NCBI RefSeq assembly: GCF_003334255.1 | Contig: NZ_QOWU01000006.1 | DNA length: 64,000 bases | Strand: one strand, 5' to 3' | From: Escherichia coli | GTDB taxonomy: Bacteria; Pseudomonadota; Gammaproteobacteria; Enterobacterales; Enterobacteriaceae | Part shown: piece after piece, positions 28,642 to 55,394 of the stretch | How positions within the stretch are numbered: position 1 is the stretch's first letter | Layout: each line of letters begins with the position of its first letter | Translations under genes and position numbers: made by a program | The notes under the pieces: generated by a model | The model's input: only the letters and a program-made list of their open reading frames with translations | What the model was told of the DNA's origin: nothing | Databases searched by the model: none

Positions 28642-28742
<101 letters not shown>

Positions 28743-29695: not shown

Positions 29696-29784
29696 TGTAG
29701 GCCGGATAAGGCGTCCCCGCCGCATCCGGCACAGGCACCGTGCTGATGTCTGATGCGACGCTGGCGCGTCTTATCAGACCTACA
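29696..29784. repeat. BIME: two inverted REP elements
   Basis: TGTAGGCCGGATAAGGCGtccccGCCGCATCCGGCA and GATGCGACGCTGGCGCGTCTTATCAGACCTACA. Confidence 0.8.
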
Positions 29785-52181: not shown

Positions 52182-52211
52182 ATGCAGGCATAAAAATTGG
52201 GGGAGGTGCCT

Positions 52212-54488
52212 ATGCTCAATCAAGAACTGGAACTCAGTTTAAATATGGCTTTCGCCAGAGCGCGCGAGCACCGTCATGAGTTTATGACCGTCGAGCACTT
52301 GTTACTGGCGCTGCTCAGTAACCCATCTGCCCGGGAGGCGCTGGAAGCGTGTTCTGTGGATTTGGTTGCGCTCCGTCAGGAACTGGAAGCCTTTATTGAA
52401 CAAACCACACCCGTTCTGCCTGCCAGTGAAGAGGAGCGCGACACACAGCCGACGCTGAGTTTTCAGCGTGTACTGCAACGTGCGGTCTTCCATGTCCAGT
52501 CCTCCGGTCGCAATGAGGTTACCGGTGCAAACGTTCTGGTCGCTATCTTTAGCGAACAGGAGTCGCAGGCGGCATATCTGTTGCGTAAACATGAAGTCAG
52601 CCGTCTCGATGTGGTGAACTTTATCTCTCATGGCACGCGTAAAGACGAGCCGACACAGTCTTCTGATCCTGGCAGCCAGCCAAACAGCGAAGAACAAGCT
52701 GGTGGGGAGGAACGTATGGAGAATTTCACGACGAACCTGAATCAGCTTGCGCGCGTGGGCGGAATCGACCCACTGATTGGTCGTGAGAAGGAGCTGGAGC
52801 GTGCTATTCAGGTTCTCTGCCGTCGCCGTAAAAACAACCCGCTGCTGGTGGGGGAATCTGGTGTCGGTAAAACCGCGATTGCGGAAGGTCTTGCCTGGCG
52901 AATTGTTCAGGGCGATGTGCCGGAAGTGATGGCTGACTGTACGATTTACTCTCTCGATATCGGTTCTCTGTTAGCGGGCACAAAATATCGCGGCGACTTT
53001 GAAAAACGTTTTAAAGCGTTGCTCAAGCAGCTGGAGCAGGACACTAACAGCATCCTGTTTATTGATGAGATCCACACCATTATCGGTGCGGGTGCAGCGT
53101 CTGGTGGTCAGGTCGATGCGGCTAACCTAATCAAACCGTTGCTCTCCAGCGGTAAAATTCGTGTAATTGGTTCGACAACCTATCAGGAGTTCAGCAACAT
53201 TTTCGAGAAAGACCGTGCTCTGGCGCGTCGCTTCCAGAAAATTGATATTACTGAACCGTCGATCGAAGAAACTGTTCAAATCATCAATGGCCTGAAACCG
53301 AAGTATGAAGCGCACCACGACGTGCGTTATACCGCAAAAGCGGTGCGTGCGGCGGTAGAGCTGGCGGTGAAATACATTAACGATCGTCATCTGCCGGATA
53401 AAGCCATTGATGTTATCGACGAAGCGGGCGCTCGCGCACGCCTGATGCCGGTAAGCAAACGCAAGAAAACCGTTAATGTGGCGGATATTGAGTCCGTGGT
53501 GGCCCGTATTGCACGCATTCCAGAGAAGAGTGTTTCTCAGAGTGATCGTGATACCCTGAAAAACCTCGGCGATCGCTTGAAAATGCTGGTCTTCGGTCAG
53601 GATAAAGCCATTGAGGCGCTGACTGAAGCCATTAAGATGGCGCGTGCAGGTTTAGGTCACGAACATAAACCGGTTGGTTCGTTCCTGTTTGCCGGCCCTA
53701 CCGGGGTCGGGAAAACAGAGGTGACGGTACAGCTTTCGAAAGCTTTGGGCATTGAGCTTCTGCGCTTTGATATGTCCGAGTATATGGAACGCCATACCGT
53801 CAGCCGTCTTATTGGTGCGCCTCCGGGATACGTTGGTTTTGATCAGGGCGGTTTGCTGACTGATGCGGTCATCAAGCATCCACATGCGGTGCTGCTGCTG
53901 GACGAAATCGAGAAAGCGCACCCGGACGTGTTCAATATTCTGTTGCAGGTGATGGATAACGGTACGCTGACCGATAACAACGGACGCAAAGCAGACTTCC
54001 GTAACGTGGTGCTGGTGATGACCACCAACGCCGGGGTACGGGAAACTGAGCGCAAATCCATTGGTCTTATCCACCAGGATAACAGCACCGATGCGATGGA
54101 AGAGATCAAGAAGATCTTTACACCGGAATTCCGTAACCGTCTCGACAACATTATCTGGTTTGATCATCTGTCAACCGACGTGATCCATCAGGTGGTGGAT
54201 AAATTCATCGTCGAGTTGCAGGTTCAGCTGGATCAGAAAGGTGTTTCTCTGGAAGTGAGCCAGGAAGCGCGTAACTGGCTGGCCGAGAAAGGTTACGACC
54301 GGGCAATGGGCGCTCGTCCGATGGCGCGTGTCATCCAGGACAACCTGAAAAAACCGCTCGCCAACGAACTGCTGTTTGGTTCGCTGGTGGACGGCGGTCA
54401 GGTCACCGTCGCGCTGGATAAAGAGAAAAATGAGCTGACTTACGGATTCCAGAGTGCACAAAAGCACAAGGCGGAAGCAGCGCATTAA
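52212..54488 (+). CDS. clpA: ATP-dependent Clp protease ATPase subunit ClpA
   Basis: ORF 52197..54488; ATG at 52212 ([11 protein letters not shown]) gives 758 aa; two AAA+ modules with Walker A GESGVGKT and GPTGVGKT. Confidence 0.9.
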
Positions 54489-54513
54489 TCTGATTGTTAG
54501 GTAGGTTGGTCAA

Positions 54514-54550
54514 GTCCGTAATCTCGAAAGAGGTTACGGACTTTTTGTTT
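54514..54550 (+). terminator. Intrinsic terminator of clpA
   Basis: GTCCGTAATCTC-gaaa-GAGGTTACGGAC hairpin followed by TTTTTGTTT. Confidence 0.75.
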
Positions 54551-54700
54551 ATGGGGTGGAGGAGGTTCAGACCCTTTTTTTAATGATGATGGTAAGTTGT
54601 TGATAATTAGTGCTGCGGGAAGGTAAGGATAAAAAAGGGTGCTGCAGGAGAATGGGATGGTTTTGCTTTATTAACAACGGGCTAAACGTGTAGTATTTGA

Positions 54701-54788
54701 GTTCACTGCCGTACAGGCAGCTTAGAAATTCACAGGTAACATACTCCACCCGCCCACCATGTTCACTGCCGTACAGACAGATAAAATG
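54701..54788 (+). CRISPR. Orphan type I-F CRISPR mini-array (2 repeats, 1 spacer)
   Basis: Repeat 1 GTTCACTGCCGTACAGGCAGCTTAGAAA (54701-54728); 32-bp spacer TTCACAGGTAACATACTCCACCCGCCCACCAT (54729-54760); degenerate terminal repeat GTTCACTGCCGTACAGACAGATAAAATG (54761-54788); no cas genes in window. Confidence 0.85.
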
Positions 54789-54790
54789 CG

Positions 54791-54820
54791 AAAAAAAAGC
54801 TCGCACTTTCGTACGAGCTC
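54791..54820 (-). terminator. Intrinsic terminator of serW
   Basis: Minus strand imperfect hairpin GCTCGtac-gaaa-gtgCGAGC followed by 8 T. Confidence 0.7.
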
Positions 54821-54831
54821 TTCTTTAAATA

Positions 54832-54919
54832 TGGCGGTGAGGGGGGGATTCGAACCCCCGATACGTTGCCGTATACACACTTTCCAGGCGTGCTCCTTCA
54901 GCCACTCGGACACCTCACC
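54832..54919 (-). tRNA. serW: tRNA-Ser (anticodon GGA)
   Basis: Minus strand reads GGTGAGGTGTCCGAGTGGCTGAAGGAGCACGCCTGGAAAGTGTGTATACGGCAACGTATCGGGGGTTCGAATCCCCCCCTCACCGCCA; long variable arm; encoded CCA. Confidence 0.95.
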
Positions 54920-55105
54920 AAATTGTTTTGCTACCAAACCTCATGGGTGGCAACGGGGCGCTACTATAGGGAGTTGGAGTAAAACGGTCAAGAAGAATTT
55001 TAATGATAATTATTGTTTGCTCATACTGTAAACAAGTTGTGCAGTATATCTACATCGAGACAAGTTACGGACTTATACTTCCAAAGTACTTCATACATAT
55101 CACAA

Positions 55106-55140
55106 AATAAAAAGGCCGGTTAAACCGACCTTTTACTCGT
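55106..55140 (-). terminator. Putative intrinsic terminator of infA
   Basis: Minus strand AAGGTCGGTT-taa-AACCGGCCTT (one mismatch) followed by TTATTTTGTG. Confidence 0.55.
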
Positions 55141-55172
55141 TCTTTCTCTTCGCCCATCAGGCGGTAAAACAA

Positions 55173-55394
<222 letters not shown>

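Follow-up and report, generated by a model that had tools for sequence, protein, structure and literature searches.

The window analyzed here, a 64,000-nt stretch of Escherichia coli DNA, carries at positions 54701-54788 what is very probably the orphan type I-F CRISPR array of E. coli K-12, with an anti-cas identity: a leader is followed by an intact repeat, a single spacer derived from cas1f, and a degenerate terminal repeat. This element is not new: its description dates from 2010 and its experimental testing from 2016.

Short arrays at this locus were described in all genomes without I-F ("Ypest") cas genes by Touchon and Rocha (2010; PMC2886076), who reported spacers matching Cas1, Cas3 and Csy2 and found these spacers to be strictly associated with the absence of the I-F cas genes. 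These authors named the arrays anti-CRISPR, noted that the terminal repeat is conserved, and argued for selection against I-F invasion. An alternative view, that of Diez-Villasenor et al. (2010) as cited in PMC2886076, is that spacer acquisition selected for loss of the cas genes. In the nomenclature of Almendros et al. (2014; PMC3903273), the clpA-infA locus is CRISPR-III, and its form without cas genes is CRISPR4.1-2. According to the summary in PMC8616872, Almendros et al. (2016) reported constitutive expression of such orphan arrays, interference against plasmids carrying I-F cas genes, and priming. The initial annotation of this DNA, made from the sequence alone, had referred to literature on cas-less strains of this kind, which exists in these three papers (PMC2886076, PMC3903273 and PMC8616872).

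Array anatomy and the clpA-infA locus

The features of the locus are as follows, in window coordinates.

52197-54488, plus strand: clpA coding region, the left boundary (open reading frame list; annotation of identical RefSeq loci)
54489-54700, plus strand: CRISPR leader, from the clpA stop codon to repeat 1 (I-F-positive strains have a homologous leader before their clpA-side array)
54512-54543, plus strand: intrinsic terminator hairpin of clpA, upstream of the CRISPR leader (terminator scan, 14-bp stem then a T run; inverted repeat)
54701-54728, plus strand: repeat 1 (R1), a canonical type I-F repeat (Rfam CRISPR-DR4, 50.1 bits; hairpin of -8.6 kcal/mol)
54729-54760, plus strand: anti-cas1f spacer of 32 nt (opposite-strand match to cas1f with a CC PAM)
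54761-54788, plus strand: degenerate terminal repeat (R2), 20 nt of repeat-derived sequence with G17A, then 8 diverged nt
54791-54826, minus strand: serW terminator hairpin and right edge of the missing cas operon (terminator scan; homology to MS1665 resumes)
54832-54919, minus strand: tRNA-Ser (GGA), serW (ARAGORN; Rfam tRNA, 53.8 bits)
55020-55108, no strand: 89-nt serW-infA stretch that replaces 1.64 kb of I-F-positive strains (the second array and most of its leader)
55173-55391, minus strand: infA, the right boundary gene of the CRISPR-III locus (open reading frame list; annotation of identical loci)

The two 28-nt repeats start at 54701 and 54761 and enclose a 32-nt spacer, giving the array a 60-nt period. 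R1 (GTTCACTGCCGTACAGGCAGCTTAGAAA) equals the consensus of Rfam CRISPR-DR4, the I-F repeat family, at 27 of 28 positions and is recovered on the plus strand with an E value of 4.6e-10, its 50.1 bits exceeding the gathering score of 35. R2 (GTTCACTGCCGTACAGACAGATAAAATG), identical to R1 at 22 of 28 positions, reaches 20 bits and falls under that gathering score; its diverged last 8 nt read ATAAAATG. The window contains two copies of the 20-nt core that opens the repeat, spaced 60 nt apart, where shuffled sequences predict 0.01; a search for this core returned no other copy in the 64 kb. R1 contributes the 8-nt crRNA 5′ handle, CUUAGAAA. The initial annotation had placed two I-F repeats and a 32-bp spacer at 54701-54788, between clpA and tRNA-Ser, and was right on coordinates, family and neighbors. 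It had also called the second repeat degenerate at its 3′ end; this is accurate for the last 8 nt, but degeneration is not confined to them, as R2 also carries G17A in its hairpin stem.

A spurious 79-aa open reading frame (window 54567-54806, minus strand) crosses the array and includes the Cas1f-derived peptide GGRVEYVTCE from the spacer. In strain AST262, a PGAP "hypothetical protein" (WP_012602745.1; positions 1207-1605 of locus L010) likewise spans the array.

The array lies in the clpA-infA interval on the clpA side of serW. The listed clpA open reading frame begins at a TTG at 52197, and the annotated 2277-nt gene would begin at 52212. The 3-kb segment that surrounds the array has 100% identity with the region near 920 kb of K-12-derived chromosomes; it has at least a partial match in all 5,426 complete RefSeq E. 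coli genomes and is contiguous in 4,425 of them. A strict sigma-70 scan of the leader returned no plus-strand promoter, a result that is uninformative about silence and is weak evidence either way. Elsewhere in the window, Rfam matches at gathering level were obtained for RybB (16924-17002, minus strand), ES036 (CssrF; 28678-28720) and naRNA4 (CssrE; 29700-29780), and these look like normal small-RNA matches of a chromosome, with no connection to the array.

We found no I-F cas gene in the 64-kb window: tblastn of the six I-F Cas proteins from a cas-positive E. coli gave a best E value of 0.03, in agreement with the initial annotation, and blastn of an 8.6-kb cas operon against the window returned the spacer as its only match (29/32 nt). 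As the 64 kb hold no I-F Cas homolog, the array is an orphan and not a complete system.

For comparison we used two strains in which the locus is interrupted by the full I-F arrangement, MS1665 (locus L001) and DETEC-S589 (locus L002). Both have the order clpA, array, cas1f, cas3f, csy1, csy2, csy3, cas6f, serW, second array, infA, with 15 repeats (MS1665) or 9 repeats (DETEC-S589) in the clpA-side array; the cas operon of I-F-positive strains thus sits between the clpA-side array and tRNA-Ser, and the clpA-infA placement of complete I-F operons given in the initial annotation is seen in both strains. In DETEC-S589, csy2 (L002 13430-14353) is annotated as a pseudogene with an internal stop, so the effector module is in decay in one I-F-positive strain at least.

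Window positions 54301-54728, comprising the clpA 3′ end, the leader and the first repeat, are 99.3% identical over 428 nt to positions 6141-6568 of the MS1665 locus, a stretch that ends in the first repeat of the 15-repeat array beside cas1f. Homology restarts at 54791, where window positions 54791-55019 align with L001 16001-16229 just downstream of cas6f, and this point therefore marks the right edge of the missing cas operon. A further BLAST block pairs window positions 55109-55300 with L001 17869-18060. A repeat search of the window found that no repeat of the infA-side second array remains in K-12.

Two short segments in the serW-infA gap resemble the clpA-side leader and terminator, 54998-55025 against 54578-54605 (71%) and 55055-55074 against 54524-54543 (85%); the leader of the lost second array may have left these similarities behind, or they may be due to chance. 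We considered whether the K-12 array is a fusion of both arrays of cas-positive strains by repeat-repeat recombination and rejected this origin, since serW, which lies between those arrays, is retained and since the ATAAAATG end matches neither terminal repeat of MS1665 or DETEC-S589.

The spacer and its target in cas1f

The spacer (TTCACAGGTAACATACTCCACCCGCCCACCAT) matches the 5′ part of cas1f on the opposite strand, and its minus strand encodes the Cas1f peptide GGRVEYVT(C)E. The number of mismatches varies with the allele: one in strain E69 (locus L012; position 6), two in DETEC-S589 (positions 4 and 6) and three in MS1665 (positions 4, 6 and 10). In all three cas1f alleles examined, a CC PAM lies 5′ of the protospacer on the spacer-like strand. 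Because the protospacer has the correct PAM, the spacer is a genuine I-F acquisition from cas1f. Its match to the gene is also closer than chance would give. The initial annotation had mentioned reports that the remnant spacer of cas-less strains matches I-F cas sequence and had suggested a BLASTN search of the spacer against I-F cas operons, phages and plasmids; the match is confirmed as cas1f with a CC PAM and 1-3 mismatches by allele, and the search recovered neither a phage nor a plasmid target.

When the spacer, its variable positions set to N, was searched in 100,044 species-representative genomes, only two loci were returned: cas1f of E. coli E69, and an E. coli-like metagenome-assembled contig with the same mini-array. 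In this set of one genome per species, the spacer was not found in any representative labeled as another species. The contig (JADFJT010000085.1, positions 1063-1210; locus L013) is filed under "Proteobacteria bacterium" and has the same mini-array and flanks as K-12; it probably comes from E. coli, the bin having been vaguely named.

A search across E. coli with the E69 version of the protospacer brought up a spacer variant whose position 6 is T where K-12 has A; another 546 cas-less genomes, O157:H7 among them, carry this variant as an exact 32-mer. This variant matches E69 cas1f (L012 924-955) at 32 of 32 positions, again with a CC PAM. Given this perfect match, the K-12 spacer is the derived form, one base away from a faithful copy of an existing cas1f allele. 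In type I effector complexes every sixth position stays unpaired with the target, as seen in Cascade and Csy structures, and position 6 belongs to this set.

The difference at position 4 falls in a synonymous AGT/AGC serine codon of cas1f (L002 7708), where the common allele has changed from AGT to AGC, and is a mismatch against both spacer variants. The closest RefSeq cas1f to a 60-mer of the E69 allele is identical to it at 57 of 60 positions. The alleles suggest that all 241 cas1f-positive E. coli genomes carry the position-4 seed mismatch, which was read directly in two RefSeq allele types (those of MS1665 and DETEC-S589) and is extended to the 241 on the basis of identity bands. This synonymous change could be drift, or it could be escape from targeting by the orphan array.

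Distribution in E. coli and the terminal repeat

The exact K-12 spacer is present in 1,433 of the 5,426 complete E. coli genomes, and cas1f in 241. A chimeric query joining the spacer to cas1f matched 1,675 genomes, and no record joined both parts. As the separate counts sum to 1,674 against this union of 1,675, there is no detectable overlap between spacer and cas1f, a zero that is the arithmetic of counts and not a genome-by-genome listing. The result fits mutual exclusion of the spacer and cas1f at population scale.

Nine other cas-less loci (L003-L011), picked for differing length or divergence, carry one to three spacers each, seven of them distinct in total. All seven match cas1f or cas3f with 0-3 mismatches and a CC PAM. 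The ATAAAATG end of the terminal repeat and its junction with the serW terminator are common to all nine loci, and the spacer orders are mutually compatible; where the anti-cas1f spacer is present it is always leader-distal, and it is presumably the oldest. This pattern fits descent from one ancestral cas-less array with subsequent differential loss of spacers. The extra spacers of the sister arrays come from 3.6 kb beside the first protospacer and could have been gained by primed adaptation.

One of the sister loci (L008) has a 4-nt deletion inside the spacer. In some strains, such as those of L003 (E. coli B; about 5650-6045) and L010 (1730-1866), the serW 3′ end and its terminator are tandemly duplicated on the stretch from the array to serW. 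The duplications bear the PGAP label "RtT sRNA", and they explain many of the approximately 1,000 genomes in which the 3-kb locus is non-contiguous.

We then consider the terminal repeat. In R2, G17A replaces a C-G pair of the 5-bp stem with a C-A mismatch. The predicted hairpin has an energy of -1.4 kcal/mol in R2, compared to -8.6 kcal/mol in R1, and the R2 hairpin is gone from the minimum-energy fold of the 60-nt crRNA. As R2 is the sole possible source of a 3′ Cas6f-binding handle for the single spacer of K-12, and G17A weakens its predicted hairpin, the K-12 copy may be poorly processed. The same G17A terminal repeat is found in L003, L006, L007, L008, L009 and L013, and G17 is kept in L004, L005 and L011. 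An 82-nt query covering the spacer, R2 and the junction had full or partial matches in 3,586 genomes, and the A17 terminal repeat is very widespread.

From these changes one might read an arms race at the locus, with the K-12 copy on the decaying side and perhaps unable to exclude I-F systems now, a reading that we hold to be unlikely. The position-4 seed mismatch in cas1f would fit escape of the surviving I-F operons from policing by the orphan array. Loss of exclusion in K-12 would follow from G17A, which breaks the hairpin of its sole possible source of a 3′ handle; the spacer has also changed, at the non-pairing position 6.

History, function and relation to known systems

We infer that the lineage formerly had an I-F system, that this system took up spacers directed at its own cas1f and cas3f, and that the cas operon was lost after this gain of self-targeting spacers. 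The remaining steps are taken from the literature, in which the array is transcribed constitutively. Upon entry of an I-F operon, Cas6f would cut R1 to generate the CUUAGAAA 5′ handle and would bind the R2 hairpin. A Csy complex loaded with the crRNA of the array would then find cas1f through the CC PAM and the seed, and Cas2-3 would be directed at the incoming cas1f, leading to DNA degradation or primed adaptation, such that the I-F system fails to establish. The array does nothing in K-12 as long as the cell lacks I-F Cas proteins.

The initial annotation had taken the spacer to imply that self-targeting drove the loss of the cas genes. This is one of two published readings; in the other, the array persists because it keeps I-F cas genes from entering again, and experimental support is reported for this second reading (Almendros et al. 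2016, as summarized in PMC8616872). The two readings are mutually compatible.

It is possible, if on balance improbable, that the array is an inert fossil: a scar of past cas1f self-targeting and operon loss that has no function in K-12 and is decaying neutrally. There are no I-F cas genes to use the array, G17A abolishes the predicted Cas6f hairpin, the spacer differs by a point change from the variant with a perfect cas1f match, the copy in L008 has lost 4 nt of its spacer, and no consensus promoter was found in the leader. Neutral decay is harder to reconcile with an exact 32-mer kept in 1,433 genomes and a one-base variant in 546 more, with a leader that is 99% conserved, and with the finding that all spacers of all sampled cas-less arrays are anti-cas. 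The K-12 point change itself falls at position 6, which is established as non-pairing in type I complexes. Unselected spacers would moreover be lost by repeat recombination, as argued by Touchon and Rocha (PMC2886076), and interference by native orphan arrays has been reported, according to the account in PMC8616872.

That the spacer is instead ordinary immune memory of a phage or plasmid, with its likeness to cas1f incidental or derived from an I-F system on a mobile element, is very improbable. I-F systems do occur on plasmids (PMC2886076), but blastn with 11-nt words and E values up to 10 found no significant match in 72,556 plasmids and 50,697 phage records. The leftovers of this search were a 17-nt chance hit and a 22/25-nt match (E = 9) that is the sole plasmid match and is itself to cas1f, on a Vitreoscilla plasmid; with only these in hand, a phage or plasmid origin of the spacer was rejected. 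Chromosomal cas1f, by comparison, matches at 29-31 of 32 positions (32 of 32 for the variant) with a CC PAM, and six more spacers of the sister arrays match the same cas1f-cas3f segment, several without a mismatch. A chance pair of repeats or a non-CRISPR element, for example part of the serW or clpA terminator region, can be set aside as exceedingly improbable: there are only two repeat copies and the second is under the Rfam threshold at 20 bits, but none of 100 shuffles reproduced either a single 28-mer match or two 20-mer matches, R1 equals the CRISPR-DR4 consensus at 27 of 28 positions, and the leader and first repeat are co-linear with the 15-repeat array of MS1665.

The preferred reading, an orphan anti-cas array, places the window array among the published CRISPR4.1-2 elements, also called "CRISPR3 anti-CRISPR" of E. 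coli, with which it agrees in its clpA-infA site, I-F repeat and conserved terminal repeat. CRISPR4.1-2 arrays have one to three spacers, all matching I-F cas genes, and no I-F cas genes; the window array is the K-12 instance and shows no difference in kind. Two details that we did not find in the accessible papers on CRISPR4.1-2 are mildly new, namely the position-6 variant of the 32/32 spacer and the stem-breaking G17A in the shared terminal repeat.

Compared to complete I-F loci (MS1665 and DETEC-S589; Yersinia and Pseudomonas), the array has the same repeat, leader (99%), site, 32-nt spacer and CC PAM, but is without cas1f, cas3f, csy1-3, cas6f and the infA-side array. It has one spacer, against 8-22 per array in complete loci, and its terminal repeat ends in ATAAAATG, against TATTCACA and T(T/C)TTCAAA in cas-positive strains.

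The array also resembles cases of CRISPR autoimmunity, in that the spacer is directed at a chromosomal gene of its own species, beside a functional PAM, and the corresponding system has decayed or disappeared. It is unlike general autoimmunity in two respects. The target is the cas operon itself, so that deletion of the target also removes the effector, and the spacer has been retained species-wide and not purged.

As a one-spacer repeat-spacer-repeat unit served by Cas proteins in trans, the array is further comparable to viral and plasmid mini-arrays and to CreR, CreA and crlRNA, which act by repressing promoters through partial matches or by targeting rival mobile elements. Unlike these elements, the window spacer is of full length (32 nt) and has a near-full match inside a coding region, and from this match it should give cleavage and priming, not repression.

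A candidate of the regulatory kind lies within the I-F operons themselves. In the cas3f-csy1 gap of both MS1665 and DETEC-S589 (about 11806-11880, minus strand), a degenerate repeat, a short pseudo-spacer and a repeat are arranged on the strand opposite to the cas genes. The pseudo-spacer, which begins TAGATGTATCTCC in MS1665 and TAGAGGTATCTCC in DETEC-S589, matches a CC-flanked site about 100 nt off in the same gap (near 11982 and 11981, respectively) at positions 1-5, 7-11 and 13. Its mismatches are at positions 6 and 12, which are non-pairing positions, and its position 5 covaries with the target between the two alleles. This mini-array resembles a crRNA-like Cas regulator of the CreR/CreA class; such regulators have been reported for I-F systems (bioRxiv 10.1101/2023.03.10.532045; 10.1101/2024.10.29.618823).

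Our finding is a confirmation of a published element and not new knowledge. Mildly new are the counts on 5,426 genomes, the 32/32 source allele in E69, the synonymous position-4 seed mismatch in extant cas1f alleles, and the possible hairpin defect of the terminal repeat. The locus is a textbook example of an array that has survived the loss of its cas genes, perhaps because it turns an incoming cognate system on itself. This contributes to an explanation for the scarcity of I-F systems in E. coli (241 of the 5,426 complete genomes), and it bears on the engineering of I-F tools in E. coli hosts.
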